NCBI GenBank assembly: GCA_964548075.1
Contig: CAZJQQ010000004.1
Location: forward strand, 115,872-179,871
Length of the DNA: 64,000 nt
DNA from: an uncultured Clostridia bacterium
Lineage (GTDB): Bacteria > Acidobacteriota > Blastocatellia > UBA7656
Direction of reading: 5' to 3'
Shown: piece after piece, positions 5,958 through 57,401 of the stretch
Numbering within the stretch: the stretch's first letter is position 1
Layout of the letters: each line of letters starts with the position of its first letter
Program-made: the position numbers and the translations under genes
The notes under the pieces: generated by a model
What the model was told of the DNA's origin: nothing
What the model saw: only the letters and a program-made list of their open reading frames with translations
The model's database searches: none

Positions 5958-6094
5958 GCAAGCGCTAGTTCATCCAGCCCTGCGTGCATATTAAAGTGAC
6001 TGGTTCAATTTCGACCCGGGGGGAAGGTCTTTGCGGTATTAGTCATCTTCGGCGACCGCCGCGCTGATTGTTCTGCTTCCGATTAACCGCCCGC

Positions 6095-6123
6095 CATATT
6101 ATCCAGCTTTGACTTTGACATCA
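6095..6123 (-). promoter_or_regulatory. Sigma70-like promoter for the 1053..5957 gene: TTGATG, 17-nt spacer, TAATAT
   Basis: Minus strand reads TTGATGtcaaagtcaaagctggaTAATAT about 135 nt upstream of the start codon. The same arrangement is conserved upstream of the paralog. Confidence 0.4.
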
Positions 6124-6240
6124 AGAGTGTGGCGGGAAGAGCACGGAAGGGAAATCAGGAGTAGCGTGTCTGATCTCATTGTAAAGCGTTCTGCGACCAT
6201 GATAACGAATATAGCATCAGCTCATGAGCGGCGAAGAACG

Positions 6241-6323: not shown

Positions 6324-9300
6324 CTACTTGAGCTTCATACTTGGATCTCCCAGCAGAATCCACGTTCGCCTCACGTCGCCGTTTGTGACCGCGGCCTTCG
6401 AACGCGCCGTCGCCTCGCCTATCGTTATCGGAGTTCCATTGAAGATCATCCCGAACACTTGCTGATTCAGAATCGCTTGAATGTCTGGCGTGGTCATCCC
6501 CGACGATCCCCACACCGCAACGGCTCCCCCATTGGCTTTCAGCAAGCTTTCGGCGAGACTGTCCAGCGCCGCGTCCTGAAAGTAGCCGTTCAAGCACGTC
6601 ATCATCACAAACATCGACAACTCACCGGCGTTAGTCAGCCCGGCGGCGTCCGCCGAAGTCAGGATGTTGCCTCGCCATTGATCCACCGACCCGTGACCGG
6701 TGTAGTTGACGATGATCTGCCCGCGATTGATCGCGTCGATCAGTCTCGCTTTCGCGGTCGCATCGTCCAGGTGAGCTCGATCCACTGTCTCGACTCGGAT
6801 GTTGGGCGGAATGAAGCCTCTCAACAGATTGCTCGCACTCCCAAAGTCGTAAGTGTCGTTGTGATCGTTCACCAACAGCAACGTGCCGGCTGACGGCTGG
6901 CCGTCGTAGCTGGCGATCTTGGTGGCAAGGCGCAACGCTTCGGTTGCCGAACGCGCCGGCAAGCGGCCAATAGCCATGTCCGGCAAGCCGTCGCCGTTGA
7001 AATCAACCAACCAGTCGTCGGAAGCCGTCTCCATGTACTGCGTGTCAATCAGTTTGGTCGGCACCAGATCCGAGTCGCCGAACCCCAGATAGTTCTTCGG
7101 ATCGAAGCTCGCATCGCCGGCCAGCATCACGAAGCGCGGCGCTTTCTTCCAGGTGGTGGCGGCATACGCCAGGAAGTCTTTCACTGCTTGCGTCGTCTTC
7201 TGACCGTAGCTGAACTCGTCGTAGACATCCTCTATGTCCACGACCGCCACCGAATATCCCTGCTTCTGCCTTAATGACACCAGCGAGCCGAGCGATGCGA
7301 AGAACTCGCGGCGAGTGAGTATCACGAGGTTCGCACCGTTGCCGGGCTGGCGCCACGACGATGGGCTGTTGGGCGCAAGGCTGACGGGTTTCGACATATC
7401 GCCCGCAATCGCCAGCAGCGTGCGCGGCTCCGCGCTTTGAGGGTTGAGCGACACCGCGTAGCCGCCGCTCTTCTGCTGTTGCACGGTCCCGATCAGTTCC
7501 TGCACCGCAGCGGGATTGGTGATGTCGAGCACGCGAATGGCAGGGCTGCTGAAGCCGTCAACCGTGACCATCTGTTTCCCGGCGACGGTGAACCGCAGCG
7601 CGTTGCCTTCAGCCGTGTAGCGATGCGGGTACGTCAGCCGAATATAGTCAACGAGACTGATATCGCTCGGTCCCCCTCGCGAAGTGAGGCGCAAGACATT
7701 TTGTCCTTCCCTCAACTGCGGCGCCTGAACGTTGAATCGTCCGACGCCTTCCGACTGGCTGTTGAAGGAAATCGTGCCCGCGTACGAACCGTTCAACTCG
7801 ACCGTGACATTGTGCGCGGCGGTAGTGACGCCTTGGAGAGCTACTTCCAGCGTTGCACCGTCGCTCGATCCCGTTTCGACCCGCGACAGCGACAGCGATT
7901 GATCCACCGGGTCGCGCGCTATGACCGAACCAAAGAAGTTCTCCTTGTCGCCGTTGCGCAACCCGGAGAAGTAGATAGAGTGGTCACGGCGCTCAACCGC
8001 GTACGGGAAGGTGCCGCCGGTGGCATCCGGACCCGCAGCATTGTTCTGACCGATGCGCTTGCCCGGTTGATCGCCGGCCGTGAGCCAGTACGTGCGCAAG
8101 TTCGTGTAAGCCGAATCTACGCCGATCCCGTAGAACTCGATGGCCGAGAGCCGGCCGTCTTTTTCGGTGACAACGTTGATAGGTTGTTCCTGCCCGTCCA
8201 CTGAAAGCCGCAGCAGGCGCGGGTCAACGCGCGAATCGAGTCCGGCTGCTGCCAGCTCGGATTGTGAGACTTGATACCATCCCTCCCGCTGCACTGAGAT
8301 TTTGACGGCTGACTGACCGGCGATGATCGCCTGACTCGCCAGTCCCGCGATGGTCATCGGTATCTGCGTGGTTCTCGGCTCGAGCGGCGAGGTTGTGCCG
8401 TCCGCGTCCGCGCTGCCAGTGAGTTCGCCTATCAGCTTCGACTGTGGTTCGACGTCGGCGGACGATAACTTCTTGACGCCACCGGTAGTCCCGCGCACAG
8501 GCCCGTACCATATGCTGGAGCCGTCGAGATCGATCGACTCAAGCCAGTACATCGAGTCGGCATTGCTGCCCTGCGAGTCGCGCCACACGTAAGACCGGCC
8601 CGCGCCAAGCACAGTCCTGGCGCCGACAAAGAGCGCCGAGCCGGCGACGAAGTCGGGCGTCACTCGAACGCGTTTGCCGGCGTCTTCGCGGTAGATGTGG
8701 AAGCCGAGGTTGGCGACCTCGTATCCGGTTTGCCATCGTAGGAGCACGCCGCCATTCGGACTGTTTGGAGTCGCGGCATAGCCGTCGGCTGTGAACCAGT
8801 TCAGCGTGGCGTCGGTCGGCGCGGTGTCGTCGAAGCAAACTGTTACATCATTGACGGTTGGCGTTACCGTGCTGTCGGTCGTGGACAGGTAAGCCTTGTA
8901 CTTCAGATAGCGATTGCCGTTGAACTGAGTGAGCGAAGCGCCGCTGGTGGTAAAGAAGGTCGCGGCGGTGCCGTCGGGGCCAACAAAGTTGAATGGGCCT
9001 ACATCGCTGGTGCTGGCCGCCACCTGGAACTGGAGGGTGGTGTTTGCCGGGACGGTGGCATTCCACGACAGCGTGGGCCAGGTGGGAACCAACCCGACGG
9101 CCGGGTTCGCGTCCTTCAGTGAGGAGACGAACGTGCCTGAAGGCGTCGTCATGAAAGTCCTGAAGCCAGCATCGGTTACAACGCCGCCAGTCAGGGGAAC
9201 GGTCCAGACCGTACCGCTCGTAGCTCCGTTGACCCGGTCACCGCCCGCGTAGAGGCTGGCGCCGGTCGTGGAACTGCCGGTACGGGTGATCGCGTAGGTT

Positions 9301-12300
9301 CCTAGGGAGGGGTTCGCGGTCGGACGTATTGCCAACGCGTACTGCGTGCCCGCCGTCAGCGTCGCCGGGCTGGCGAAGTTTCCGGTGTAGAAGATCGCGG
9401 CGCCGCTGGAGAAGCCCGTGATCGTCGCGGACGCGAGGTCGGCTCCCGTGGGCAGGCCACCGCTGGTCGCCCTCACCGAGAGCGTGAGGTTGGGCGTTGT
9501 GCCCGTGCAACCGCTACAGAACAGGTTGATGTCGGCCCTTGTGAGCTGACCTGTGACGGTCGGCGTGAACGTCTGTCCACCCCAGGTCGTGATGGTGATG
9601 CCAAGCCCGAAACCACCGATGGCCTCGTTCAGTTGGTCAAGGTTCTGCTTCGAGAGGAGAATGTTGCCCGCGCTGGTCGTGAGGTCGCACTTCGCCGGAG
9701 TTCCCACGGAGAAGTCAGCCTGCGAGGTATCCGTCAGGCACCCCGTCACAGCCGCCGCGGTGAGCGCGAAGTTGTTCGTCGACGTCCCGCCGTCGGGAAC
9801 AACAACGGGCGTGGTCGTAGCGGAGTTATAGCCCAGAGCGCTGGCCGAGATGCTCGGATACGTCCCTGCCGGTATGTTCGTGAAGGAATAAGTGCCGTTG
9901 ACAGCCGTCGTCGTCATCCGGCTGCCGAACGCGACGCTCGCACCGCTGATCGGCGAGCCGCCCGGAGTCACGGTCACTGTACCGGACACGGTTCCGTTGC
10001 CGATTGCAGTACACGAGGGAAACTTGAAGGAGCCGATCCGCGTCAGGTCATTCAGCCCGTCCGTGGCGTAATACTCCTGCGTATACCAGAAGGTGCACCC
10101 ATCGGTCGGATCGAGGGTCATTGCACTGTAGTCACCCCAGCGGGTACAGGTGCCACCGCACGTGCCCACTTGCGTACCAGTGCCTTGAATGAGATCGACC
10201 TCCGTCTGCGGAAGCGAGCTAAGCGCATCGCCGAACAATCGTCCCGCGTAACGGATCGCGGGTTTCATCGTGCTGTTCGAGGCACTGTAGCCGATCATCA
10301 TATCGCCCGCGCGATCAACTGCTAGACTGGGCATGAAGCGGCTCACGGTGCTGTCGGGGCTATGCGTGGAGACCTGCGTCGGAGCTGCCGCGATGGTACC
10401 GCCCGTGACAACGGTCTGGTACCAGCGGACCCCGGCTTGTCCAGCTACGCTGCCCAGGACGGTGTGCGAGTCCCAGAGCGACTCAACGCCGCCGATGTTC
10501 GTGTACTGGTTCTGCATCATCGACCTGGTGGGGAGCGTGTCGAGATTGTTGCCGCCCAGGGAAGGCACGGTAGCCGGGGGACCCACCCAGCTCGTGCCTG
10601 CAATCGAGGTCGTGACCCCGGTGAACGTCGAGAGAAAGACATTGTTCCAATCGACGTGGAACTTCCAGATTGCCAACGCATTGGTATATGTGCCGGTTCC
10701 GACGAAGTAGTTCGGTGTCCCGGCCGGCGGCGTGCCGGACTGGAGTCGGGCGTTGCTGGGAATAATCGTGAAGACTGTGCCTCCATTCTGGTCCAGCCTT
10801 GGCGCGTCGAACGAAACAATCTGCGGGTTTGCCGCCCCGGCATACATCTGCGCCTTGTTGAACGCCCACTGTCGACTGAAGATGAACGATCCGCTGGTCG
10901 CGCCGAATCCGAACATGTTCGCGTTCATATATATGCCGTCAGGCCAGACGCCCAACTTCGGATAGTCGTTCAGCGCGTCTGGGACTTGGATCGAGTAGAA
11001 GTTCCACCCGCCCACGACCGGGTCGCCGGTCTTCGAGACCGCGAAGCATTGGAACGCACCGGGCGGGTTCACCACGTTGCCTCCGCTAAGCTGGAATGCG
11101 AAGTCCGTGATAATCCAGCGATCCTCAAAGGTGTCGTACAGAACCACGGGATCGCCAAAGTTGTCAGTGTCGCACAAGTTTCCAAAGCTGCCCTGGCTCA
11201 TGAACGTGTTGAAGGTGAAAGCCGCCAACTGAGTACCGGTTTTGTTGTAGATACCAATTGACGTGTTGACCGTCTCAATGTAGTGGTTTGGACCCACGTC
11301 GCCGTTTGTATCTGGCGGGTGGCCGGCGCCCCAGGTGTTGAAATCGAGGCCGTCGAAGTTCGCGATCGGTGAAGGGGCCGGAGCGGCCGGTGCAACTTTC
11401 GGCGCGGCAGGCTTAGACGGCGTTGGGGGTTTCGGTCCTATGAAGAGCGGCTCAAACTCCGGGGCTTCCTTCTCGGGCCGCTCCTTCTTGACCGGTGGAG
11501 TCCTTGGCAAATCTCTAAGGTCGCCATTGAATTCTTTCGCCTTCACCAGATGTAATTCTTTGGGCTTGAGGTTAATGGTTTGGACCGTTGCACTAACTGC
11601 TCGCTCCTGCGTGGGCCCGACCGAACTTCCGTCTTTGGTCGGCGCGGCTGCAATTGCTGAACCTGCGGCAGGAGCAGGATTGAGTTTTCCATTAGCGGTT
11701 TTGGGGGTTGTATCGCCGTTTTCAGCGCTCAAAGTTATCTCACCGCCGGTACCCTCCGCGGATGCGAGCTTCTCTGCCGGCAGATTTTCTGCATCAGCGC
11801 GCTCTGCGGTCGCTGAGACAGGAAGGCCTGTTTGCTCAACTGAACTTCTTTCCGATCGCCCTTGCTGCGCATCAAGTGAAGTCGCGGATGATTGTAATCC
11901 CGTATCAGCCGATTCAGATGACGCTTGCTTGCTGGTTGGGTCCGGCTTGCGGAGGATTGAGAATACCGGGTTCCTTCGCAGGGGCAAAGGCGGCGGCAGG
12001 GGCGAGATTCGGAAGACGCCCTGGCCTACTCCCGGTGAAATGGCCGTGTTCTGACGCTGCGCACGAGGTATTTGCGCGAAACCTTTGCGTTCTAGCTGCT
12101 GTAGCTTCGCGGTTCTTGCCAACTCGCGTATTCGCGAGCCGAGGAGTTTAGCCCGCGCCCGGCGTGCGGCGGCGGATTTCTGTGCGCCATTGCCAAGTAT
12201 GCGTTGAAATGCAGTGGCCGGGCGAGGGGGTCTTGCCTCCTTCGAGCTAAGGGGTCCCACAACTGCAGGCGCAACGGCTGATCTCTGCTCTGCGCCGCTT

Positions 12301-12509
12301 GCTGCCGGTGAAGTCGCGGCGTCTGGCTGGGCACCGGGCAGTTGAGAAGATCTTTTTATGAAGAGCAGGCTGATGCCTGTTGCTAAGATGACAAGGCATA
12401 GCGATACAAGGATCGCTCGCGAGACGTTATTCGTTCGACGACTTGGCTCAGCCGGCGCGCCGGTGACATTCGGTGTGTTCTTAATAGTCATTGGTGCTTT
12501 CTCCTTCAC
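6324..12509 (-). CDS. Giant membrane-anchored surface protein (2061 aa) with a carboxypeptidase-regulatory-like beta-sandwich and a C-terminal peptidase C25 domain
   Basis: N-terminus is nearly identical in pattern to its paralog (TIKNTPNVTGAPAEPSRRTNNVSRAILVSLCLVILATGISLLFIKRSS). Contains GTYSFTNIPAGTY (CarboxypepD_reg-like). C-terminal C25 motifs: VNYTGHGSVDQWRG and MFVMMTCLNGYFQD. Ends ...WILLGDPSMKLK, compared with ...WILFGDPAMRLK in the paralog. Confidence 0.8.
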   Translation of the reverse strand: MKEKAPMTIKNTPNVTGAPAEPSRRTNNVSRAILVSLCLVILATGISLLFIKRSSQLPGAQPDAATSPAASGAEQRSAVAPAVVGPLSSKEARPPRPATAFQRILGNGAQKSAAARRARAKLLGSRIRELARTAKLQQLERKGFAQIPRAQRQNTAISPGVGQGVFRISPLPPPLPLRRNPVFSILRKPDPTSKQASSESADTGLQSSATSLDAQQGRSERSSVEQTGLPVSATAERADAENLPAEKLASAEGTGGEITLSAENGDTTPKTANGKLNPAPAAGSAIAAAPTKDGSSVGPTQERAVSATVQTINLKPKELHLVKAKEFNGDLRDLPRTPPVKKERPEKEAPEFEPLFIGPKPPTPSKPAAPKVAPAAPAPSPIANFDGLDFNTWGAGHPPDTNGDVGPNHYIETVNTSIGIYNKTGTQLAAFTFNTFMSQGSFGNLCDTDNFGDPVVLYDTFEDRWIITDFAFQLSGGNVVNPPGAFQCFAVSKTGDPVVGGWNFYSIQVPDALNDYPKLGVWPDGIYMNANMFGFGATSGSFIFSRQWAFNKAQMYAGAANPQIVSFDAPRLDQNGGTVFTIIPSNARLQSGTPPAGTPNYFVGTGTYTNALAIWKFHVDWNNVFLSTFTGVTTSIAGTSWVGPPATVPSLGGNNLDTLPTRSMMQNQYTNIGGVESLWDSHTVLGSVAGQAGVRWYQTVVTGGTIAAAPTQVSTHSPDSTVSRFMPSLAVDRAGDMMIGYSASNSTMKPAIRYAGRLFGDALSSLPQTEVDLIQGTGTQVGTCGGTCTRWGDYSAMTLDPTDGCTFWYTQEYYATDGLNDLTRIGSFKFPSCTAIGNGTVSGTVTVTPGGSPISGASVAFGSRMTTTAVNGTYSFTNIPAGTYPSISASALGYNSATTTPVVVPDGGTSTNNFALTAAAVTGCLTDTSQADFSVGTPAKCDLTTSAGNILLSKQNLDQLNEAIGGFGLGITITTWGGQTFTPTVTGQLTRADINLFCSGCTGTTPNLTLSVRATSGGLPTGADLASATITGFSSGAAIFYTGNFASPATLTAGTQYALAIRPTANPSLGTYAITRTGSSTTGASLYAGGDRVNGATSGTVWTVPLTGGVVTDAGFRTFMTTPSGTFVSSLKDANPAVGLVPTWPTLSWNATVPANTTLQFQVAASTSDVGPFNFVGPDGTAATFFTTSGASLTQFNGNRYLKYKAYLSTTDSTVTPTVNDVTVCFDDTAPTDATLNWFTADGYAATPNSPNGGVLLRWQTGYEVANLGFHIYREDAGKRVRVTPDFVAGSALFVGARTVLGAGRSYVWRDSQGSNADSMYWLESIDLDGSSIWYGPVRGTTGGVKKLSSADVEPQSKLIGELTGSADADGTTSPLEPRTTQIPMTIAGLASQAIIAGQSAVKISVQREGWYQVSQSELAAAGLDSRVDPRLLRLSVDGQEQPINVVTEKDGRLSAIEFYGIGVDSAYTNLRTYWLTAGDQPGKRIGQNNAAGPDATGGTFPYAVERRDHSIYFSGLRNGDKENFFGSVIARDPVDQSLSLSRVETGSSDGATLEVALQGVTTAAHNVTVELNGSYAGTISFNSQSEGVGRFNVQAPQLREGQNVLRLTSRGGPSDISLVDYIRLTYPHRYTAEGNALRFTVAGKQMVTVDGFSSPAIRVLDITNPAAVQELIGTVQQQKSGGYAVSLNPQSAEPRTLLAIAGDMSKPVSLAPNSPSSWRQPGNGANLVILTRREFFASLGSLVSLRQKQGYSVAVVDIEDVYDEFSYGQKTTQAVKDFLAYAATTWKKAPRFVMLAGDASFDPKNYLGFGDSDLVPTKLIDTQYMETASDDWLVDFNGDGLPDMAIGRLPARSATEALRLATKIASYDGQPSAGTLLLVNDHNDTYDFGSASNLLRGFIPPNIRVETVDRAHLDDATAKARLIDAINRGQIIVNYTGHGSVDQWRGNILTSADAAGLTNAGELSMFVMMTCLNGYFQDAALDSLAESLLKANGGAVAVWGSSGMTTPDIQAILNQQVFGMIFNGTPITIGEATARSKAAVTNGDVRRTWILLGDPSMKLK

Positions 12510-14384: not shown

Positions 14385-14553
14385 CGAAGTGTTGTGCGTC
14401 CCCGATGCCTCAAGTCCACCGCCTGCAAGGGCAACCGTGATGCCACAAGCATTCTGTCAAAAGGGCGCCGAAAAACGGCCAGATTTGACAAAGACAGATG
14501 CGATGAGAGAAGAGCGAGCGCAGTAAAAATCTGACACTCGGCTCAGTCTGGTT

Positions 14554-14661
14554 GATGCGTGAGGCGTGATGCGTGATCCGTGAAACGTGATAGATGGTTG
14601 TTCGCGCCGCCTATTCTGGTCACGGATCTCGCATCACCCTTCACGGATCTCGCATCACGTC
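14554..14661. promoter_or_regulatory. Operator-like array: three copies of an 18-nt motif (one inverted, two direct) in a divergent promoter region
   Basis: gtgatgcgTgatccgtga at about 14567..14584. tcacggatctcgcatcac appears twice at about 14620..14637 and 14641..14658. It lies between the divergently transcribed 13947..14384 operon and the 14758 gene. Confidence 0.4.
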
Positions 14662-15872: not shown

Positions 15873-15878
15873 CCGGAA

Positions 15879-15956
15879 GTAGCATAGACTTTAGTCTGTG
15901 TCCGGTGGATTATTCAGTCTATCGATATGACTGCCACAGACTAAAGTCTATGATAC
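15879..15956. repeat. Palindromic element family P1: 22-bp inverted arms gtagcatagactttagtctgtg with a 34-nt loop; second copy at 57402..57478
   Basis: catagactttagtctgtg ... cacagactaaagtctatg, followed by TTTT. It lies between the 15363..15872 gene and the TPR gene, 26 nt before the TPR start. Confidence 0.8.
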
Positions 15957-15981
15957 TTTTCGGCATAGAAAGGGAGCGATT

Positions 15982-18096
15982 TTGAGAAACAAAAAATTCA
16001 CAGCCAGCGCGGCTCTTGCTCTGGTGATGGCACTAGCAGGTGCCGCGAACGTGGAATCGGCCTCGGGAGCCGGTTTCAGGGCTCAAGAAAATTCGCAGTC
16101 AGCGAGCGCCGACAAACGCGCCGACGCGCTGAAGAAGTACCTCGAGGCAAAGCGGCTAGACGAGGCGGGCAACTATCCCGGCGCGGTCGCTGCGTACAAG
16201 GAGGCACTGGCGTTGGACCCGCAGTCCGTCGAGCTGAGAACGGCGCTCGGTTCGTTATTCCTGAAAAACCGCAACGTCATCGACGCCGAGGCCCAGGCGA
16301 AAGAGGCGATGAAGCTGGCACCCGATAGCATCGACGTGCGCAAGCTGCTGGCTCGCATCTATATTTCCCAGACCTTCGTTGGCACAACTCTGGTCAAAGA
16401 GAAGGCTCGCGCCGCGATAAAGGAGCTCGAGGAGATTGCTCGTCTCAGCCCGAACGCCAAGATCGAGGTGGGCGATCAGGAACAGGCTGTTCTGGCGATC
16501 ATCGGCGAGATGTACTGGACGCTCGACGAACAGGACAAGGCGCTCGACGCATTTAAGCGCGTTTCCGAGGGCAGCTCGACGGCCGATCGCGCGCACTATC
16601 AACTCGCGCAGCTCTACTCTCAGAAAAACAAGTTCCGCGAAGCCGCCACCGCGGCGCGCAAGGCTTATGACATTGATCCCAAGTCGCCTGCGTACGCGGG
16701 ACTGCTCGCCAGATCGCTGCTGCGCATCGGGCGCACGCAAGAAGCGTTGGATATTTACAAGAAAGCTATCGGGATCAAGGAAGTCGCGAGCAAGGACCCC
16801 AAGAAACCCGCCGAAACCGCGACGTCCGGGGACAAGGATGATGAAGAGACAGGGGTGCTCATCAACTCTCCGCTGCTGCTCGACTACTTGGAAGCGTTGG
16901 TGTACTCGGGCCGCTACGACGAAGCAAACAAGCGGCTTGATCCGTTGATCAAGGTCGTCCGCAAAGACACCCCTGCCTATTTGAATTTGATCAGGGTGAA
17001 GGGGGACGTGTTGAGGAGAACCGGCAAGCGCGAAGAGGCTGTGCAGTTGTTCGAAACCGCGCTCAAGGGACAGGACGTGTCCGACAGCCTGCAGGTCGTG
17101 TACGCGCTCGCGGAGACCTACGAAGAGATGCTCCAGTTTGATAAGGCGGTCTCAACGTATGAAGATGCGCTCACGTCGATCGTCAACCCTGATGGAACTG
17201 TGGGCGCGCGTGAAGGGGAGAAGCAAGCCGCCGAGGTCGTGCTTCAGCGAATAGCTCTCGCGTACCGCGTGGCCGGTAAACGCGACAAGGCGATGGAAAC
17301 CTTCGAGCGCATGAAAAAAGTCGTGGGCAAGGATCGGCCGCGCGCCGACCAGCTCATCGTGGACACATTGATCAACGAGGGCAAATACAAAGAGGCGCTC
17401 GCCGCTGCGACCGATGCCGCCGCGCGATTCCCTGACGAGCGCTCGTTCAAGCTCTATCGCGCGCAGTCCGCCGGCCGTCTCGGCGACGTGGCAACGGCTG
17501 ACGCGACGCTGAAGTCGTTGCTGAAGGACGGGCCCGAGGACGCTGACGTATACCTGTTCTGGTCAAGCGTGCAGCTCGAGGCTAACCAGGTGAAGGAAGC
17601 TGAAGAGAGCGCGCGCAAGGCCGTCGCGCTCGAGCCGAATGACGTCGGTCCGCTGGTTACTCTGGCGAGCGTGCAGGACAGAGAGAAAAAGTACAAAGAA
17701 TCTGAAGCCACCTTAAGGAAGGCGCTCGAGATTGACCCGGACAACGCCACGGTGTTGAACAACCTCGGCTACTTTCTTGCGGACCGGAACGAGCGGCTGG
17801 CTGAAGCGGAAGCGCTGATACGACGAGCGGTGAACATCGAGCCTACGAACGGGTCGTTCCTGGATTCGCTCGGATGGCTGCTGTACAGACAGGGCAAGCT
17901 CGCGGAAGCGCAAAAGTATTTGGAGCAAGCGGTCATCTATCAACAGCGTTCAAGTACGATCCACGATCATCTTGGCGATCTGTACAAGAAACAGGGACAG
18001 ATGGATAAGGCTCGCGCGAAGTGGGAAGACGCGCTGAGGCTCGCGACCGAGCCGGATGAGATAAAGAAGATCAAGGAGAAGCTGGGGAAGAAGTAG
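15982..18096 (+). CDS. Tetratricopeptide-repeat (TPR) protein, secreted
   Basis: TTG start with AGGGAG SD. Signal peptide [29 protein letters not shown]. Many TPR-like units ([33 protein letters not shown], ...). Confidence 0.85.
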
Positions 18097-18352
18097 AAGG
18101 CGGAAGGCAGAAGGCAGAAAGCAGAAGGCAGAAAGCGGAAGGCAGAAAGCAGAAGGCAGAAAGCGGAAGGCAGAAAGCAGAAGGCAGAAGGCAGAAAGCA
18201 GAAGGCAGAAGGCAGAAGGCAGAAGGCAGAAGGCAGAAGGCAGAGGTGAGAATATCTTGAGTTCCACGTATATCAAAAACCGTCAAACGACTGCCTTCTG
18301 CTTTCTGCCTTCTGCCTTCTGCCTTCTGCTTTCTGCCTTCTGCCTTCTGCCG
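18097..18352. repeat. Long simple-repeat hairpin: about 21 (GAAGGCA/GAAAGCG) units, about 45-nt loop, about 9 inverted (CTGCCTTCTG/CTTTCTG) units
   Basis: Begins at the TPR stop codon. Its inverted arm lies inside the 5' end of the next ORF. The same unit recurs after tRNA-Gln at 21039..21097. Confidence 0.8.
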
Positions 18353-20820: not shown

Positions 20821-20847
20821 GCAGCCCAACCTGGAGGATCGAAGGTG

Positions 20848-20882
20848 GAAGATCGAGGATCGATCCTCTATCTTCAATCTTC
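20848..20882 (+). terminator. Candidate terminator hairpin after ispE
   Basis: gaagatcgaggatcgatcctctatcttc contains the palindrome gaggatc/gatcctc. A weak T-rich tract follows. Confidence 0.3.
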
Positions 20883-20955
20883 GATTCTCTGTTCTGTGGT
20901 GGGCTGGTTAGTCTTTAACGCGGTGGATTCCAGTCTAATCTTATCAGCATAATAC

Positions 20956-21030
<75 letters not shown>

Positions 21031-21034
21031 ACGC

Positions 21035-21102
21035 AGTAAGCAGAAGGCAGAAGGCAGAAAGCAGCGGCTGCCTACCGCCTACTGCTTTCTGCCTTCTGTT
21101 TC
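21035..21102. repeat. Simple-repeat hairpin (GAAGGCA units) directly after tRNA-Gln, probable terminator
   Basis: cagaaggcagaaagcag ... ctgctttctgccttctg is a 17-bp perfect stem, followed by TTTCG. It uses the same repeat unit as 18097..18352. The prs SD (GGAGG at 21105) follows immediately. Confidence 0.7.
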
Positions 21103-21113
21103 GTGGAGGCAGT

Positions 21114-22056: not shown

Positions 22057-22133
22057 CCCTGGGAGCGCAGGCATCCCTGCCTGCTCTGGCGATGCGCGAA
22101 GGACAGGCAGGCAGGGATGCCTGCGCTCCCAGG
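22057..22133. repeat. REP pair (inverted REP core CCTGGGAGCGCAGGCATCCCTGCCTGC)
   Basis: Left copy at 22057..22084, inverted copy at about 22105..22133. Same element as at 25203, 26833 and 27569. Confidence 0.8.
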
Positions 22134-22149: not shown

Positions 22150-22824
22150 ATGATCAAGGATCTAACAATCAACGCAAGCGCGCGTGAGGGAGTGGGCAAG
22201 GGTCCGACTCGCCGGCTGCGCGCGCAAGGGATGATTCCCGCTGCGGTCTATGGCGAAGGCGGGGACGCGGTTGCGGTTGCCGTCAGCGCCAAAGACATCG
22301 CAACCATACTTCGCTCGGGTTCGGGTCACAACACCATCTTCAAGCTTGCGCTCCCGCACGCCGACGGCGAACCCGCCAACGTGATCATCAAGGACTATCA
22401 AGTCGATCCGGTCAAGGGCCGCTTGCTGCACGCAGATTTGTTGCGGCTGTCGATGACCACGTTGACCCGCGTGAGCGTTTCGGTTGAAACAATCGGTGAG
22501 CCCCCCGGAGTAAAGAGCGAGGGCGGAATACTTGAGCTTCAACTTCGCGAGATCGAAGTCGAGTGCTTGCCGGGCGACATACCGGAGCACCTGAGGGTCG
22601 ACGTCTCGAACCTTCAGATTGGCGACCACGTGACGGTGGCCGACCTCGTCTATGATCGCGAAAAGGTCAAGTTGCTTGTTGCCGATGAACATCAGATCGT
22701 CGCCGGCGTGTTGGCTCCGCGAATGATCGAGGAAGTCGTTCCTGTTGCTGTGGTTCCTGAGGGTGAGGAGGGCGCAGCCGCCGAGCCCGAGGTGATCAAG
22801 AAGGGCAAGGCTGACGAAGAATAG
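22150..22824 (+). CDS. rplY: 50S ribosomal protein L25 / general stress protein Ctc
   Basis: MIKDLTINASAREGVGKGPTRRLRAQGMIPAAVYG... is a typical L25 N-domain, with an acidic C-terminal tail. Confidence 0.9.
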   Translation: MIKDLTINASAREGVGKGPTRRLRAQGMIPAAVYGEGGDAVAVAVSAKDIATILRSGSGHNTIFKLALPHADGEPANVIIKDYQVDPVKGRLLHADLLRLSMTTLTRVSVSVETIGEPPGVKSEGGILELQLREIEVECLPGDIPEHLRVDVSNLQIGDHVTVADLVYDREKVKLLVADEHQIVAGVLAPRMIEEVVPVAVVPEGEEGAAAEPEVIKKGKADEE

Positions 22825-22927
22825 TCCATCGTCCGTAGTCAGTAGTCAGTAGTCCGTAGCAATGAAGGACTAACAACTGGCTACGGACTACGGACTACGG
22901 ACTACGGACTACGGACTACGGACTATG
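22822..22927. repeat. Simple-repeat hairpin (GTAGTCA/GTAGTCC units versus GGACTAC units) filling the entire rplY-pth intergenic region
   Basis: Starts at the rplY TAG stop (aTAGTCC). Its last unit, ggactATG, supplies the pth start codon. Confidence 0.75.
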
Positions 22928-23512
22928 AAGCTAATAGTCGGGCTCGGGAATCCGGGGCGGGAATACGAAATGACCCGCCATAATCTCGGGTTCATGCTCA
23001 TTGACAGATTGCTTACGCGGGCCGGCGGACGCCGGTTTCGCTCCGAGTCCAGCGCAAAAGTGGCGGAGGTCGCGCTGGCAGGTCAGCGAGTGTTGCTCGC
23101 GAAGCCGCAGACGTACATGAATTTGAGCGGCGATGCGGTTCGTCCCTTGCTCGACCGGTACGGCGAAGGGAAGCCGGCAAACCTGCTCGTTGCGAGCGAT
23201 GATGTCGCGCTTCCATTCGGCATGATTCGCGTGCGGGAGCGAGGAAGCGCGGGTGGCCAGAAAGGCCTGAAGTCGATCATCGAACGGCTGGGCACCCAGG
23301 AGTTCGCGCGAGTGAGACTCGGTGTAAAGCCTGATCACCCGCTCGATGATCTCTCTAGATATGTGCTTTCGCCGATTCGCAACCGCGACCGTGAGCAGTT
23401 GGAAGAGACTCTCGAACGCGCCGTCGACGCCGTGACGGTGATTCTGAGCGAAGGCGTGGAACGGGCGATGGCCCGCTTCAACGAACGAGTGAAAAGTGAG
23501 AATGAAGCGTAG
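22925..23512 (+). CDS. pth: Peptidyl-tRNA hydrolase
   Basis: MKLIVGLGNPGREYEMTRHNLGFMLIDRL ... QTYMNLSGDAV is the Pth signature. Confidence 0.9.
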   Translation: MKLIVGLGNPGREYEMTRHNLGFMLIDRLLTRAGGRRFRSESSAKVAEVALAGQRVLLAKPQTYMNLSGDAVRPLLDRYGEGKPANLLVASDDVALPFGMIRVRERGSAGGQKGLKSIIERLGTQEFARVRLGVKPDHPLDDLSRYVLSPIRNRDREQLEETLERAVDAVTVILSEGVERAMARFNERVKSENEA

Positions 23513-23513
23513 C

Positions 23514-23597
23514 GAGTTCAGAGTTCAAGCTTTAGCTTGCCTTTAGCAGGCTTTATTTCGAATGACCGGAGCAAGCTAAAGCTTGTACTCTGAACTC
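23514..23597. repeat. Palindromic element family P2: 27-bp arms gagttcagagttcaagctttagcttgc with a 30-nt loop; second copy at 31511..31591
   Basis: Left arm 23514..23540, right arm 23571..23597, one mismatch. Begins 1 nt after the pth stop. Confidence 0.8.
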
Positions 23598-23768
23598 CCT
23601 GTTCTTTCTCAAGAGGTTCTAAAAGTGAATCTCCTTGCTCTGGCACAAGAGGCCAGGGCTTTAACCGAAGCGTCGCGGGCCGCGACCTGATCAACTCGAT
23701 CTCAGATTCGAGGTCGAGTATCCCGAGCGGCGGCGAGCGAAGTAATCCAAAAGGAGGATATCTCTCTG

Positions 23769-24206: not shown

Positions 24207-24496
24207 GCAGCGAACACAGAGAGCACGGACGCCGCGACGACAGAGGCGGCCGCCAGGGCGGCGGACAAGGCGGCGGGCGCCGATTCATACGCGCGCGCAA
24301 GTCGTGCCGCTTCTGCGCCGACAAGGTCGATTACATAGACTACAAAGACGGCCGGCTTCTCGGGAGCTACATCCCAGAGCGCGGCAAGATATTGCCTCGG
24401 CGAATATCCGGCACGTGCGCGCCACATCAGCGTATGCTTGCGACTGCGATCAAGCGAGCTCGCAACGCCGCGATTCTGCCGTTCACTTTGGATTAG
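24203..24496 (+). CDS. rpsR: 30S ribosomal protein S18
   Basis: [64 protein letters not shown] overlap with rpsF. Confidence 0.9.
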
Positions 24497-24590
24497 TCCG
24501 TAGTCCCTGGTCCGTAGTCCGTAGCAAATCCGGCTACTGACTACTGACTACTGACTACTGACTACTGACTACTGACTACTGACTGTTAGC
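24494..24590. repeat. Simple-repeat hairpin (GTAGTCC units versus CTACTGA units) between rpsR and rplI
   Basis: Starts at the rpsR TAG stop. Inverted arm is (ctactga)x7. Ends 14 nt before the rplI start. Arms mismatch at every 7th position. Confidence 0.75.
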
Positions 24591-25202: not shown

Positions 25203-25300
25203 TGTATGGGCGGCCCTGGGAGCGCAGGCATCCCTGCCTGCTCGGGGTCGCGCAGGAAGAGGCAGGCAGGGATGCCTGCGCTCCCAGGGCCGTCCATACA
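25203..25300. repeat. REP pair with extended flanking palindrome
   Basis: tgtatgggcggccctgggagcgcaggcatccctgcctgc ... gcaggcagggatgcctgcgctcccagggccgtccataca. Confidence 0.8.
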
Positions 25301-26832: not shown

Positions 26833-27672
26833 CCTGGGAGCGCAGGCATCCCTGCCTGCCTGACATTCGCGCGAGAAGCAACTTGGACTGAGAATTGCGC
26901 TCAATGGAAAGCGGCAGGCAGGGATGCCTGCGCTCCCAGGGCTCCCAGGTTATGCCTGACGATTGGCAAAAGCGCCCCCGCCTGCCGAAGAGCAATGCGC
27001 ACCCGACTGGGGTGCCGCAATGGTATTCGAGGGGCTACGTGCCGCATTTCGAGATGCCGGGCCTGACCCAGACGATGACCTTTCGCCTGATCGATTCCAT
27101 GCCGCAATCGGTGCTCGAACTCTGGCGCGAAGAACTCCGCCGCCTCCCGGAAAAGGAATCTGACCTCGAACGCCGCAAACGCATTGATGCTTATCTTGAT
27201 CAAGGACACGGCAGTTGCTATTTGAAAGACGAGCGGCTGGCGGGAATCGTCCAGAATGCGCTGCTTTATTACGACGGCCAACGATACTTACTGCACGCCT
27301 GGGTCGTCATGCCTAATCACGTTCACACTCTGTTTACTCCGGAAGCAGGCTGGACGTTGAGCAAGATCGCGCATTCGTGGAAATCCTACACCGCCAATGA
27401 ATGTAACCGGGTGCTGATGCGAAAAGGCGAGTTCTGGCAGCGGGAACCGTTTGATCGGTACATTCGCAATGAACAGCATTACGAGAACGTCGTGAGGTAC
27501 ATTGAACACAATCCGGTTAAGGCCGGATTGTGTGATAGACCTGAAGACTGGCGCTGGAGTAGTGCCTACCTGGGAGCGCAGGCATCCTTGCCTGCAGACC
27601 CTGCGGAAGGTCCTTCATAAACGAAAGAGGCGAGCTGCGAAAGCAAGCAGGCAGGATGCCTGCGCTCCCAGG
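26833..27672. mobile_element. REP-RAYT-REP unit (REP-associated tyrosine transposase flanked by inverted REP pairs)
   Basis: REP pairs at 26833..26949 and 27569..27672 flank the RAYT CDS. Identical REPs are dispersed at 22057 and 25203. Confidence 0.75.
26952..27620 (+). CDS. REP-associated tyrosine transposase (RAYT, IS200/IS605 HuH family)
   Basis: HuH motif YLLHAWVVMPNHVHTLF. Catalytic Tyr region RYIEHNPVKAGL ... WRWSS. Start ATG at 26952 immediately after the REP. The longer ORF from 26895 merely translates the REP. Confidence 0.8.
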   Translation: MPDDWQKRPRLPKSNAHPTGVPQWYSRGYVPHFEMPGLTQTMTFRLIDSMPQSVLELWREELRRLPEKESDLERRKRIDAYLDQGHGSCYLKDERLAGIVQNALLYYDGQRYLLHAWVVMPNHVHTLFTPEAGWTLSKIAHSWKSYTANECNRVLMRKGEFWQREPFDRYIRNEQHYENVVRYIEHNPVKAGLCDRPEDWRWSSAYLGAQASLPADPAEGPS

Positions 27673-27674
27673 TT

Positions 27675-28683: not shown

Positions 28684-29265
28684 ATGGACCCAAACATCTG
28701 GAGCCACCTGCTTCACCCTGACCTGTCGATACTCGAGAAGATAATCCGTCCGGTGATCGTCTACCTGTTTCTGGTAGTCGGTCTGAGGCTTGCCGGTAAA
28801 CGCGAACTCGCTCAACTGAACCCGTTTGATTTGATCGTGCTGCTGACGTTGTCCAACACTGTGCAGAACGCGATCATCGGCAACGACAACTCGGTAACTG
28901 GCGGGCTGATCGGCGCTACGACGCTGCTGGTCGTGAACTACATCGTTGTGCGATTTCTTTTCAAACACCGGAAGATTGATCGGCTTGTCGAGGGCGATTC
29001 CGACGTGTTGATCGAAGGAGGACAGATCAAACACAACCGGCTGAAAAAGGAGCTGATAACCTTGTCCGAACTTGAGTCGGCCGCGCACAAGCAAGGTTTT
29101 GGTTCGCTCGACGAAATCGACCAAGCGCAGATCGAACCTGGTGGAACATTCTCGTTCATCGGAAGGAAGCCCGCGCCCGAAGCCGAGCGCCACAGCGAGG
29201 TGCTCGCGCGTCTTGATCGGATAACGGGTGAGCTGGCAGAATTGCGCGCGGCGGTGCAGCGATGA
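28684..29265 (+). CDS. DUF421 (YetF-like) membrane protein
   Basis: ...RELAQLNPFDLIVLLTLSNTVQNAIIG..., two N-terminal TM segments, then a soluble C-domain. This is the typical DUF421 pattern. Confidence 0.7.
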   Translation: MDPNIWSHLLHPDLSILEKIIRPVIVYLFLVVGLRLAGKRELAQLNPFDLIVLLTLSNTVQNAIIGNDNSVTGGLIGATTLLVVNYIVVRFLFKHRKIDRLVEGDSDVLIEGGQIKHNRLKKELITLSELESAAHKQGFGSLDEIDQAQIEPGGTFSFIGRKPAPEAERHSEVLARLDRITGELAELRAAVQR

Positions 29266-29398
29266 ACCAAAGAGCAAAGAGGTAAGAGGTAAGGGGTAAG
29301 GGCGGCTTACGCTCATTGCTCTTTGCCCTTTGCCCTTTGCCCTTTGCCCTTTGCCCTTTGCCCTTTGCCCTTCGCTCTTTGCCCTTCGCTGCTACAGC
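29266..29398. repeat. Simple-repeat hairpin (GGTAAGG/GCAAAGG units versus CCCTTTG units) between convergent genes
   Basis: aaagagcaaagaggtaagaggtaaggggtaaggg ... ctctttg(ccctttg)n. My base count in this repeat disagrees with the ORF track by about 7 nt, so coordinates are approximate. Confidence 0.7.
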
Positions 29399-31203
29399 GC
29401 AAGCTTGCCTACGCTTCCCTTACCGACGCGCGGGCCGCGATTGTCACGGGCCGGCGCGTGATCCATATTCGCCGTCCGCATTCCAATCTCGTATGCGTAT
29501 TGCCCGATGCGCGCCATCTTCTCGTAGTTGATCTTCTCCGCACTGTCGGTGTTCGCGTGATAGTCGGGATGCAGGCCCGTCGTTAGGAAAACGATTGGCA
29601 CGCCCTTCAAGGCGTAGCTGTAGTGATCGCTCCGATAGTAAATCTGTTCGAGGTCCGTCGGATCGTTCATCTCATAATCGAGTTTCAACGGCTTCACGAG
29701 CGGGCCGTTCGCATCAACGGTGATGTTATGAAACTCGGTGCTTATGCGGTCCGACCCGACGATGTACACCGTGTTAGCTTCTTCAGCTTTGTTGTCGCGG
29801 TTGCGCCCGACCATGTCCATGTTGACCTGCGCGACGATCTTATCCATCGGCACCGTCGGATAGTCCGCGAAGAAGCGCGAGCCCCACAGTCCTTTTTCTT
29901 CGCCCGAGTGCCAAACGAAAACGAGCGACCGCCGAGGCTTCGGCCCCGTCGCGAACGCCTTCGCCATACCCATGATCGTCACTGTTCCCGAGCCGTCATC
30001 GTCGGCGCCGTTCCAGACTCGATCGTCGATTGCGCCTGCGGTCACTCGGCCGCGCGCGCCGCTGCGCAACGGTCCGCTTGCGCCTTGAGTGACTTCGCCT
30101 TCCGCGTAGCCGACGTGATCGTAGTGCGCTCCAAACGCAACATACGTGTCTTTGAGTTTTGGATCCGAGCCTTCGATTATGCCAACGACGTTGTGGGTGT
30201 ATTGGGTTCGCACGACCTGATACTTCGCATCGATGTTGAAAGTTATCCGAACATTCTTAAGCGTGAACCCCGGGAGCGGTTCACCTTTTGAAGCTTTGTC
30301 TTTCAACTCCGCGTATTTCACCTCGCTGCCGCTGAAGAGGAATTCGAAGAAGTAATCCTGGCCGGTGGCCGCCGGTGGAACTGCCGCGTCCAGCCTCTGG
30401 ACCGTTGTGAAGTCCGAACCGTCCGCCTGACCTCCGCCAAACTGACCGCCCGCAGGAGGGCCGCCCTGTCCTTGACCCTGGCCGCCTTGTCCCTGAGCAC
30501 CTTGCGCTTGGGCACCTTGTCCCTGAGCACCTTGTCCTTGACCGCCCTGTCCCTGAGCACCTTGCCCGCCGCCTCGTCGAAAGCCGCCCCCAACGCCTAT
30601 GCTTGCTACGGCGCCTTCTTGCTCAGTCGCGTAACGCGAACGGCCACCCAGTGCGCGGCGATACTGCGCTCCCTCCATACCCTTGGGCGGCGTGTTTCCG
30701 AGAAACACCACCGTCTTGCCTTTCACCTTCTTACCTTCGTAGTCGTTGTGCTTGGCAAGGGGCGCGTTCAGGCCGTATCCCACGAACTCGATCTGGTCGG
30801 ACGTGAGCGTTTGCTTGCCGCCGACATTAGAAGGAAAGCTGATTCCTTCTCGGTTCTTGAACGTGCGAGTCTGGCCGCCCGCTTCGGCGGTAATCGTTGA
30901 GTTGTTTTCGCTCTTGACGCCGAGCACTCCAACTCTCTGGAAGTAAGACCCGTTCGGGCCGCCCGGCTTGACACCCCACGACCGAAGGCGCTCGGCTATG
31001 TATCCGGCGGCGAGCCCGAGTCCTTCGGTGTAGGTGTTTCGACCCTCGAGCTCATCGGAGGCCAGGTAAGCCAACCACTCTTTCAGGTCTTCCTGGGTAA
31101 TCGCATCCCGGCCGTTGCCCTTTGCCGAGGCGGTCGAGAACGTGAAAGCGGCCACCAGAGCCAGTTGTGTGACGATGGCGGTGATTCTGCGAAAAGATGA
31201 CAT
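29392..31203 (-). CDS. M28 family zinc peptidase with PA domain and a (GQGAQ)n low-complexity insert
   Basis: Signal peptide. M28 metal ligands AFGAHYDHVGY, WNGADDDGSGT, HSGEEKGLWGS, NMDMVG, RSDHY. The insert GGQGAQGQGGQGQGAQGQGAQAQGAQGQGGQGQGQGG is encoded by a 15-nt simple repeat. Confidence 0.85.
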   Translation of the reverse strand: MSSFRRITAIVTQLALVAAFTFSTASAKGNGRDAITQEDLKEWLAYLASDELEGRNTYTEGLGLAAGYIAERLRSWGVKPGGPNGSYFQRVGVLGVKSENNSTITAEAGGQTRTFKNREGISFPSNVGGKQTLTSDQIEFVGYGLNAPLAKHNDYEGKKVKGKTVVFLGNTPPKGMEGAQYRRALGGRSRYATEQEGAVASIGVGGGFRRGGGQGAQGQGGQGQGAQGQGAQAQGAQGQGGQGQGQGGPPAGGQFGGGQADGSDFTTVQRLDAAVPPAATGQDYFFEFLFSGSEVKYAELKDKASKGEPLPGFTLKNVRITFNIDAKYQVVRTQYTHNVVGIIEGSDPKLKDTYVAFGAHYDHVGYAEGEVTQGASGPLRSGARGRVTAGAIDDRVWNGADDDGSGTVTIMGMAKAFATGPKPRRSLVFVWHSGEEKGLWGSRFFADYPTVPMDKIVAQVNMDMVGRNRDNKAEEANTVYIVGSDRISTEFHNITVDANGPLVKPLKLDYEMNDPTDLEQIYYRSDHYSYALKGVPIVFLTTGLHPDYHANTDSAEKINYEKMARIGQYAYEIGMRTANMDHAPARDNRGPRVGKGSVGKLAL

Positions 31204-57377: not shown

Positions 57378-57401
57378 GCGTCAAACCAGCCCAAAAACTC
57401 G

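Follow-up and report, generated by a model that had tools for sequence, protein, structure and literature searches.

Long intergenic hairpins built from inverted heptanucleotide arrays in a Blastocatellia clade

Introduction

Among long simple repeats, tandem heptanucleotides are the class most over-represented in many bacteria. What they do has been in question since 1990, when Mazel et al. reportedly described the short tandemly repeated repetitive (STRR) heptanucleotides of cyanobacteria, and again since 2007, with the work of Mrazek. As related in two later papers, long simple-sequence repeats of this class (units of 5-11 nt) prefer non-coding DNA (Mrazek 2007, via PMC4679880 and PMC4692102). 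Here we describe, in a 64-kb stretch of contig CAZJQQ010000004.1 from an uncultured member of the Blastocatellia (Acidobacteriota), hereafter the window, a set of long intergenic hairpins whose two arms are tandem arrays of mostly 7-nt units, the second array being an inverted copy of the first. With head-to-tail units of 7 nt, at least three copies and a non-coding location, these arrays belong to the heptanucleotide class.

In Xanthomonas, GGGAATC heptamers are strongly intergenic and are mostly found as convergent inverted pairs able to form stem-loops; they are under-represented between divergent genes, adjoin housekeeping genes and occupy the same intergenic sites in related species (Rehm et al. 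2015, PMC4692102). The hairpins of the window resemble them in being inverted pairs of the same unit, intergenic, located in the same positions in related species and variable in length and sequence. However, whereas Xanthomonas has one G-rich unit (GGGANTN) with quadruplex potential and a modal number of four units, we counted 40 units here, most of them incapable of forming a quadruplex. Arms that covary, hairpins exchanged in their entirety and a stem base linking a stop codon with the following start codon are not described for Xanthomonas. A second comparison is offered by the TAACTGA repeats of Beggiatoaceae, with one inverted set among 170 (PMC4679880). Both these and the STRR sequences are, like the present arrays, intergenic tandem heptamers that often adjoin start codons and are scattered over unrelated phyla, but they comprise one or few units per genome, mostly in direct orientation, while here arrays normally have an inverted partner (85 of 100). 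The STRR sequences, moreover, consist of few heptamers in high copy in heterocystous cyanobacteria, in contrast to the many unit families of each Blastocatellia genome. One unit, TTGGTCA, present in three of the relatives examined (L005, L012 and L112), is presumably the same as STRR2.

At the hmw1 locus of Haemophilus influenzae, an (ATCTTTC)n heptamer gives rise to a long RNA hairpin which is cleaved by RNase III and is required for the repeat number to change (PMC12721329). The likeness lies in a heptamer repeat and a complementary downstream arm that together form a long hairpin, the RNA role being experimental in hmw1. Yet hmw1 is a single phase-variable virulence locus whose hairpin lies in the 5' untranslated region and whose right arm is a G-rich stretch and not an inverted array, whereas the hairpins described here are located between cistrons or at 3' ends, genome-wide and beside housekeeping genes. 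By analogy, the hmw1 hairpin can be regarded as an experimental precedent for this kind of structure. In the early mRNA of phage T7, RNase III hairpins are the processing sites between cistrons. An RNase III stem of the T7 or hmw type calls for a continuous RNA duplex, some 20 bp or longer, within a transcript; the stems predicted here would, if transcribed, have 20-60 bp.

Repetitive extragenic palindromic (REP) sequences and their REPIN doublets also form long hairpins after genes and within operons (Bertels & Rainey 2011, PMC3116915). REP hairpins stabilise upstream mRNA, and REPINs number in the hundreds, nearly identical to one another and mobilised by a RAYT transposase. The heptamer hairpins differ from REPINs in that they share units, not loops or the order of variant units, and in that their arms are tandem; near-identical dispersed copies were observed only among separate, non-tandem families, such as that with the arm GGGAGCGCAGGCATCCCTGCCTGC.

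We found no paper linking Acidobacteria with heptamer tandem repeats, and the surveys that cover tandem repeats or hairpins across the tree of life make no mention of heptamer hairpins in Acidobacteria. The repeat class itself is already known, having been noticed earlier in Xanthomonas and cyanobacteria; what is new is the presence of many units per genome, the near-obligatory inverted pairing, the covariation of the arms, the turnover of cassettes and, at some sites, stems that run exactly from stop to start codon. We propose, with confidence evenly balanced between belief and doubt, that these elements are transcribed stem-loops between cistrons, and that slippage by 7 nt, arms evolving together and the turnover of cassettes have shaped them. 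The clade represents a clean natural experiment, with dozens of sites, many unit families, covariation, ribosomal-protein operons and polymorphism at 95-99% identity, in which it becomes testable whether such repeats act as RNA, as DNA structure or as selfish elements, what the basis of the 7-nt step is and how far RNA-dependent repeat dynamics of the hmw type reach.

Materials and methods

Tandem arrays were called with Tandem Repeats Finder (TRF) and long inverted repeats with a custom scan of the window and of Markov-shuffled copies of it. The z-scores of RNA folding were measured against dinucleotide shuffles, and genes were called from codon-position GC content and homology. Relatives were 15 syntenic metagenome-assembled genomes with 66-96% identity in the Pth protein (Pth-based search, one genome per species), to which a metagenome scan added about 40 further loci; sequences other than the window are referred to by L numbers. 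The Pth search also assigned the window to the Blastocatellia (Acidobacteriota). The census of arrays covered the window and 14 relatives and considered arrays of at least three copies, an inverted partner being sought within 200 nt. For the comparison of strains, the exact S18 protein was looked up in public assemblies (L160-L165).

Hairpin loci in the window

The scan returned 18 long hairpins in the window and 0-1 in its Markov-shuffled copies. About 11 of the hairpins consist of tandem 7-nt units (rarely 8-10 nt) followed by an inverted array, while in about nine more the arms are not tandem. Stems of 20-60 bp and loops of up to 84 nt are predicted by folding and by the inverted-repeat scan. 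The tandem loci and their parts are the following (evidence in brackets; RBS, ribosome-binding site):

18095-18244, plus strand: 5' array of the primary hairpin, (AGAAGGC/GAAGGCA) x21.4 (TRF, sequence, Pfam)
18245-18290, plus strand: non-repetitive loop of the primary hairpin, 46 nt (sequence, folding)
18291-18351, plus strand: 3' array of the primary hairpin, (CTGCCTT) x8.7, reverse complement of the 5' unit, with a CAP-domain gene next (TRF)
21035-21102, plus strand: GCAGAAG-unit hairpin from the 3' end of tRNA-Gln (21030) to the RBS/GTG of prs (TRF, 21040-21064 and 21077-21102)
22822-22927, plus strand: GTAGTC(C/A) hairpin exactly from the L25 stop TAG to the pth ATG (TRF, folding, relatives)
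24494-24590, plus strand: hairpin from the S18 stop TAG to just short of the L9 RBS (TRF, folding, relatives)
29266-29398, no strand assigned: hairpin filling the gap between two convergent stops, of a DUF421 gene (plus strand) and an M28 peptidase gene (minus strand) (TRF, Pfam)
58536-58817, plus strand: octamer hairpin, (GCAGAGGG/GCAGAGGA) x18.5, loop, (CTCCTCCG/CTCCTCTG) x8.2 (TRF, 58542-58690 and 58749-58814)
14553-14660, plus strand: GTGATGC-type (GTGANNC) hairpin (TRF, scan, folding z -4.9)
20834-20889, plus strand: GGATCGA-type heptamer hairpin from the stop of a GHMP-kinase gene to tRNA-Gln (TRF, folding z -5.0)
43124-43178, minus strand: short TTAGGGG/AGCCCCT-type hairpin from a serA-like stop to a serC-like RBS (folding z -3.7)
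53507-53640, minus strand: hairpin of 9-10-nt CTTTGCGAN units between co-directional minus-strand genes (folding z -6.3)
41900-42010, minus strand: weak, degenerate hairpin of CACAAAGAC units from the serC-like stop to the RBS of a Band-7 gene (TRF, folding)

The first six loci had been reported by the initial annotation as runs of short units followed by a reverse-complement run. All six are present in the TRF calls and their arms pair when rechecked, both as inverted repeats and by folding as RNA (-41 to -181 kcal/mol, z -4.6 to -11.5). Its count of at least six was too small, since the loci at 14553-14660, 20834-20889, 43124-43178 and 53507-53640 and the weaker one at 41900-42010 (z -2.2, with 5 of 200 shuffles folding equally well) share the design, and its density of about one per 8 kb is too low, the 18 long hairpins giving about one per 3.5 kb. 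The GTGATGC unit family of 14553-14660 occupies other sites in relatives.

At the primary locus, the 5' array starts within the TAG stop (18094-18096) of a gene for a 704-aa TPR protein and contains a 28-nt higher-order repeat; the arms (18177-18236 and 18291-18350) have 60 nt and are 98% complementary, and the segment 18094-18365 folds at -144.7 kcal/mol (z -11.5). Values for the tRNA-Gln|prs hairpin (21031-21112) are -42.9 kcal/mol and z -5.2, and for the L25|pth hairpin, where the array at 22831-22859 pairs with that at 22881-22925 (CTACGGA x6.4), -58.6 kcal/mol and z -9.6 (22822-22927). At S18|L9 the arrays are 24494-24524 and 24534-24584 (CTACTGA x7.3, a pure run); the 5' arm is built of GTAGTCC (TAGTCCG-type) and the 3' arm of the complement of GTAGTCA, which leaves one mismatch per unit (24494-24590, -41.4 kcal/mol, z -6.9). 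The arms between the convergent genes have diverged (AAGAGGT/AAGGGGT at 29277-29300 versus TTGCCCT x10.1 at 29316-29386; 29263-29394 folds at -55.8 kcal/mol, z -4.6). The octamer hairpin, flanked by a SurA-like PPIase gene (stop codon at 58530-58532) and an S4-domain gene (ATG at 58822), has arms that are about 82% complementary and folds at -180.5 kcal/mol (58530-58825, z -7.2). Complementarity at these last three loci (24494, 29266 and 58536) reaches only about 80-86%.

Rules of the system and its distribution

Period 7 was found in 95 of the 113 arrays of the census, and 85 of the 100 arrays with period 7 or 8 have an inverted partner of the same unit, a direct partner being found for none (0/100). 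The inverted layout and the 7-nt step are thus rules of the system and not accidents of the window. We distinguished 40 consensus units, among which TAGTCCG, GTGATGC, GATTTTG, GGCAGTA/GGCAGAA, GGTTCNG and GGATCGA are families that recur across loci and genomes. The view that unit sequences differ between loci conceals this recurrence of a limited vocabulary, and in the window itself two pairs of loci share units (GAAGGCA at 18097 and 21035; GTAGTC(C/A) at 22822 and 24494). That the loci are not copies of one mobile element is borne out. The further proposal of a process that generates or maintains a repeat with its inverted run agrees with the period, the inverted partners, the covariation of the arms and the conserved sites.

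Hairpins of this design are concentrated in the clade. Close relatives (206 kb) yielded 73 long hairpins, 49 of which have period-7 arms; other phyla (889 kb) yielded 62, and only two of these have such arms. Four of the five hairpins of a Pyrinomonadaceae genome (L018) have period-7 arms, and hairpins with heptamer arms were also found beyond the clade, in Gemmatimonadales (L040, 9250-9321; L057, 12132-12286) and in an outgroup metagenome (L124, 6202-6271), so that the phenomenon may extend more widely among soil bacteria.

Orthologous sites in related genomes

When orthologous intergenic regions were compared, the same gaps were found occupied in dozens of related genomes. In more than 40 of them, the tRNA-Gln|prs, L25|pth and S18|L9 gaps nearly always hold a hairpin, with at least six to eight unit families per site across the three. 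The L25|pth spacer, of 75-116 nt, contains a hairpin in every genome of the clade with at least 73% Pth identity, whereas in the outgroups (about 53% Pth identity) it has 29 nt and no hairpin. The commonest units at this site are TAGTCCG/TAGTCAG, others being GTGATGC, GTGACAA, TTGGTCA/TTTGTCA, GTGGTCA/GTGGCCA, GGGGCCG, GATGAAT, AGACTAG and GGCAGTN; several of these families are one substitution apart once the unit is rotated. Across the clade, S18|L9 holds TAGTCCG, GATTTTG or GTGATGC types, and tRNA-Gln|prs holds GGCAGTA/GGCAGAA, GGTTCNG, GGATCGA, GATGAAT, GAGATCA and GTGCTGA. Variation is greatest downstream of the TPR gene, where the window has GAAGGCA, L007 has GATTCTG, L009 has GTTCAGG, and L003 and L022 have a complex hairpin of 50 bp. 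Loops and the order of variant units are specific to each locus and are vertically inherited across 73-96% Pth identity.

An assembly artefact, which had been named as a possible source of the structures, is excluded, since independent assemblies produced by different assemblers, from short reads as well as in long contigs (some of 400-660 kb), agree on the hairpins and on their sites. Contigs sometimes stop inside arrays but do not create them. In L162 and L163, for instance, a short-read metagenome contig ends at or within the S18|L9 array, and heptamer hairpins thus break short-read assemblies of soil Acidobacteriota genomes.

Co-evolution of the arms

For covariation we aligned 32 distinct L25|pth spacers on a stem of 29 pairs. 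RNAalifold reported double-sided changes in all of the 15 pairs that it predicted. Paired cells amounted to 84.9% in the observed alignment, 72.8% after shuffling and 24-43% when the partner was slid by 1-3 columns; pairs changed on both sides numbered 27 (15.5 shuffled, 9-18 slid), and cells with a double change 105 (38.6 +/- 5.5 shuffled, with none of 500 shuffles reaching 105, and 16-34 slid). The arms therefore co-evolve across species. Individual alleles are old and constrained, judging from the TAGTCCG-type hairpins of S18|L9, whose 18 distinct spacers are 81-82% identical; in the flanking codons third positions are 60% and first and second positions 87% identical.

On covariation alone, the molecule under selection could be RNA or DNA. 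DNA-level elements (cruciforms, G-quadruplexes or arrays bound by protein, with a role in the nucleoid, replication or recombination) would suit pairing statistics that are strand-symmetric, and runs of at least four G are present at only two loci (GGGG at 58542-58690 and a TTAGGGG-like run at 43124-43178), which would be quadruplex-capable as proposed for Xanthomonas and Nostoc (PMC4692102). However, most units (GTAGTCC, GAAGGCA, GTGATGC, GATTTTG) lack G-runs, the units share no motif for one binding protein, and the strict placement from stop codon to RBS points to the transcript or to translation, which makes a DNA-level role highly improbable. We rejected the G-quadruplex as an explanation since it covers at most two of the approximately 11 loci, and a sequence-specific heptamer-binding protein, such as the cold-shock proteins speculated on for the TAACTGA repeats (PMC4679880), is unlikely for unit families without a common motif.

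Slippage, cassettes and possible copying

The arrays change in length by steps of 7 nt or multiples of it. The 28-nt higher-order repeat of the primary locus and the 100%-pure arms at 22881-22925 and 24534-24584 (TRF) indicate slippage in multiples of 7. The assemblies found through the S18 protein illustrate several degrees of change. L162 is the same strain (100% identical), with a contig that breaks within the array, and L161 and L165 have the same hairpin type and differ only in copy number (147 versus 132 nt). L164 is 98.9% identical over S6 and S18 and its neighbouring pth|S6 hairpin is identical, yet at S18|L9 it precisely lacks the hairpin (GGATTAG|AGAGGACTTATCAAATG). For L160 the overall identity is about 95%; its genes are 92-98% identical, and identity collapses at all four of the intergenic gaps compared, L25|pth, pth|S6 and S18|L9 holding GTGATGC-type hairpins and L9|dnaB an unrelated sequence that includes an extra called gene. 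The boundaries of these swaps coincide with the stop codon (at pth|S6 inside it, TAG versus TGA) and with the start region of the next gene. Whole hairpins are thus gained, lost or replaced as discrete cassettes. As unit families recur and hairpins are swapped or lost between near-identical genomes, cassette-like mobility or recombination is part of the story, and the initial annotation, although right in setting aside a single mobile element, played mobility down too far.

Copying between nearby loci is suggested by the GAAGGCA unit, since in the window the TPR site has the same variant as the tRNA-Gln|prs site 3 kb away, other genomes differing at the TPR site. At S18|L9 a target-site duplication is suggestive: TAG or TTAG stands on both sides in the window and the empty site of L164 reads TAG|AGAGG, while the GTGATGC-type cassette of L160 can be parsed just as readily if no duplication is assumed. 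Patchiness of hairpin types on a crude clustering by protein distance was discarded, because the ungapped distances used are unreliable at loci with insertions or deletions; in the single close pair inspected, the difference between L085 and L087 is explicable by homologous recombination, since their flanking coding sequence differs too.

Slippage alone might be thought sufficient, the hairpins being a mutational by-product of 7-nt polymerase slippage and of template switching at quasi-palindromes, with selection doing no more than keeping arrays out of coding sequence. The higher-order repeats in the array at 18095, the pure and recently expanded arms, the copy-number differences between near-identical genomes and the symmetry of mismatch types (see below) are in line with it, and the heptamer excess is ascribed to polymerase slippage in the literature (Mrazek 2007, via PMC4692102 and PMC4679880). 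It does not explain why the same sites are occupied across a deep clade when outgroup spacers have 29-30 nt, nor conservation above that of synonymous sites, nor the exchange of whole cassettes, and recent copying from arm to arm would predict a mirrored order of variant units, which was not observed. We consider this explanation unlikely.

The presence/absence polymorphism at 98.9% identity, the whole replacement at 95% and the sharp boundaries would suit palindromic mobile elements, selfish or neutral, resembling REPINs or miniature inverted-repeat transposable elements (MITE-like), which insert into harmless sites after stop codons, acquire heptamers by secondary slippage and have no function for the host. 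The recurrence of the same unit families at different loci and in different genomes fits such elements as well, as does the lack of an excess of G.U over A.C mismatches. So does the sharing of the same type of site by truly dispersed, perfect families, one of which (GGGAGCGCAGGCATCCCTGCCTGC) has replaced the GTGATGC type at prs|L25 and after dnaB. Nevertheless, loops and variant order are locus-specific and vertically inherited, L25|pth holds a hairpin in effectively 100% of the clade in spite of changes of type, and hairpin alleles are more conserved than synonymous sites, which together suggest retention and not random gain and loss. No common ends, consistent target-site duplication or transposase were identified (within the 64 kb, and with no search made for RAYT). 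Selfish elements, kept alive by the cassette polymorphisms and by the REPIN-like families, are the main rival, possible although rather unlikely, and the other alternatives are less likely.

Gene context and termination of transcription

All arrays are intergenic relative to the called genes and start at stop codons or within a few nucleotides of them, the first unit often opening with the TAG stop itself; they extend to just short of the next RBS, or to the next ATG. The location immediately after stop codons, as first described, is valid for most loci, the hairpin at 21035 following instead the tRNA-Gln gene (20956-21030). Co-directional gaps are filled at TPR|CAP-domain, tRNA-Gln|prs, L25|pth, S18|L9, SurA-like|S4-domain and serA-like|serC-like, and only 29266, among the tandem loci listed, lies between convergent genes. 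The neighbours are ordinary housekeeping genes without a shared function (Pfam). At L25|pth, the stop UAG pairs with a CUA that overlaps the AUG of pth at the base of the stem, and no clear RBS sequence was seen by eye in pth (22915-22927 and orthologues). Such a geometry would suit re-initiation by terminating ribosomes.

It had been suggested that such hairpins would be strong terminators, RNA-stability elements or recombination hotspots; the first of these is unlikely on several grounds. No T-run follows the hairpin at any of the loci, and a consensus terminator scan gave 24 sites in the window versus 20.1 expected, none of them at hairpin ends. Several hairpins take up the whole gap in conserved operons (L25|pth, S18|L9, serA|serC), leaving no room for a promoter. 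We thus discarded canonical intrinsic terminators, given the lack of U-tracts and the intra-operon sites without promoter room; stems of up to 60 bp and loops of up to 84 nt are also unlike their GC-rich stems of about 5-20 bp and their short loops. Terminators of another kind, bidirectional or formed by a hairpin without a U-tract, could be argued for from the position directly after stops and from the loci at possible ends of transcription units, the convergent pair at 29266-29398 and the site after tRNA-Gln. Since the canonical type is not enriched, some other signal must end transcription, and the G-rich bias of the 5' arm (see below) has the same direction as in long hairpins of other phyla. 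Yet these terminators, too, would lack a T-run and would stand at operon junctions with no space for a downstream promoter, and stems of 30-60 bp far exceed those of known intrinsic terminators. Efficient termination seems to be ruled out by operon geometry at several sites, and as a general explanation terminators are quite unlikely.

The 5' arm has more G than C in 110 of 113 tandem hairpins and in 37 of 38 unit families (p ~3e-10; window and L001-L117), and a weaker bias in the same direction is shown by the clade's non-tandem hairpins (60:15) as well as by long hairpins from other phyla (41:19). Since the two strands of a palindrome have the same sequence, this polarity belongs to the element and not to the strand examined, and either transcript would carry the G-rich arm first. 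Our guess is that it may reflect the avoidance of a long, unpaired C-rich stretch that would load Rho before the second arm is made.

The only Rfam match above a family's gathering threshold across the whole window was tRNA-Gln, and no known RNA family was found at the hairpins. Integron attC sites were dismissed, as no conserved core motif (RYYYAAC / GTTRRRY) was read at hairpin ends and the flanks are syntenic housekeeping genes and not mobile cassette genes. A CRISPR array, which would have direct repeats of 25-40 nt alternating with unique spacers, was dismissed too, the units here being of 7-8 nt, contiguous and without spacers. The idea that the units supply stop codons in all three frames is true, as read by eye, for only about half of the unit families, and so is not a general one.

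A possible role between cistrons

Such hairpins, each made of a 7-nt array, a loop and an inverted array, are a standing feature of the Blastocatellia clade and occupy the slot between a stop codon, or the 3' end of a tRNA, and the next RBS or start codon. We hypothesize that each is transcribed within polycistronic mRNAs and would form an RNA stem of 20-60 bp at the boundary between cistrons, which may be a substrate for double-strand-specific processing of the RNase III type or a 3'-end stabiliser for the upstream cistron, and which at L25|pth may allow translational coupling, with the base of the stem bringing the stop codon beside the start codon. The stepwise changes in array length are consistent with slippage within an arm, and the arms are held complementary at the level of the consensus unit, perhaps by selection for pairing or by copying between arms. 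Whole hairpins are gained, lost, switched to another unit family or, it seems, copied between nearby sites.

Several observations weigh against a role as inter-cistron RNA stems. Hairpins are dispensable at some sites, as S18|L9 is without one in L164 and, with a spacer of 29-30 nt, in L007/L099 and L014. The rule of inverted pairs has a rare exception in L002 (Pth identity 95%), where the two long adjacent arrays after the TPR gene (5876-6159), (GAGGTCG) x23 and (TCGTAAA) x9.6, show no mutual complementarity. That unrelated dispersed hairpins can take over a site fits equally well the notion that any hairpin will do and that of selfish elements. Variant units in one arm do not follow the mirrored order of those in the other (1503 matches versus 1506 +/- 5.7 permuted), in a test of low power, since most arms have 4-5 units; pairing is therefore kept at the level of the consensus unit and not unit by unit, and the arms have a consensus unit in common but are not recent copies of one another. 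If selection at the RNA level acted strongly on every base pair, an excess of G.U over A.C mismatches would be expected. The stems have 74 G.U and 61 A.C (p = 0.30), hence no such excess, and this symmetry is weak evidence against per-pair selection on RNA, although not decisive, because long stems tolerate mismatches.

A bolder proposal, by analogy with hmw1, is a self-renewing system of operon-marking hairpins in Blastocatellia, and perhaps in some Gemmatimonadales, in which growth and homogenisation of the arrays would depend on the transcribed RNA hairpin, as the hmw study proposed for its one locus, where the repeat number changes only with both the RNA hairpin and RNase III. We regard it as doubtful, but it would explain why arrays are found almost only as inverted pairs. 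If true, the hairpins would be general inter-cistron modules, ribosomes could re-initiate across the base of the L25|pth stem, and the exchange of cassettes between loci and strains would represent new dynamics of non-coding "alleles".

Other hairpin families and repeats in the window

Besides the tandem loci, the window contains dispersed perfect hairpins. Those with the arm GGGAGCGCAGGCATCCCTGCCTGC are found at 22058-22133, 25203-25300, 26833-26940 and 27568-27673 (seven arms, 0-1 mismatch); they begin 2-5 nt after stops (prs, L9, dnaB), are REPIN-like and are also present in L003. They sit at prs|L25 and after dnaB, where most relatives carry GTGATGC-type hairpins. A second dispersed family, GCATAGACTTTAGTCTGTGT, with 24-bp stems, is located at 15877-15958 and 57401-57476 and in L022 (9153-9172), and one relative carries it at prs|L25. 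The third, GTTCAGAGTTCAAGCTTNAGCTTGC (23511-23600 and 31512-31591), retains a residual 7-nt periodicity and is possibly a decayed GTTCAGN array. A separate perfect hairpin of 34 bp (31223-31317) lies where two divergent genes leave a gap of 405 nt; the entire gap folds with z about -25, as measured against just four mononucleotide shuffles.

Tandem repeats are also present within coding sequence. The minus-strand open reading frame (ORF) 53646-54773 contains a repeat of 87/174 nt (53740-54145; about 3.7 copies, 71-75% identity) that presumably encodes a repeated protein module, and in-frame repeats were identified in the M28 peptidase gene (30470-30578; 15/30 nt) and in the Band-7 gene (41152-41257; 54 nt). 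Four ORFs are very large: 1053-5957, 6324-12509, 31609-37671 and 46699-50403 (1634, 2061, 2020 and 1234 aa, respectively).

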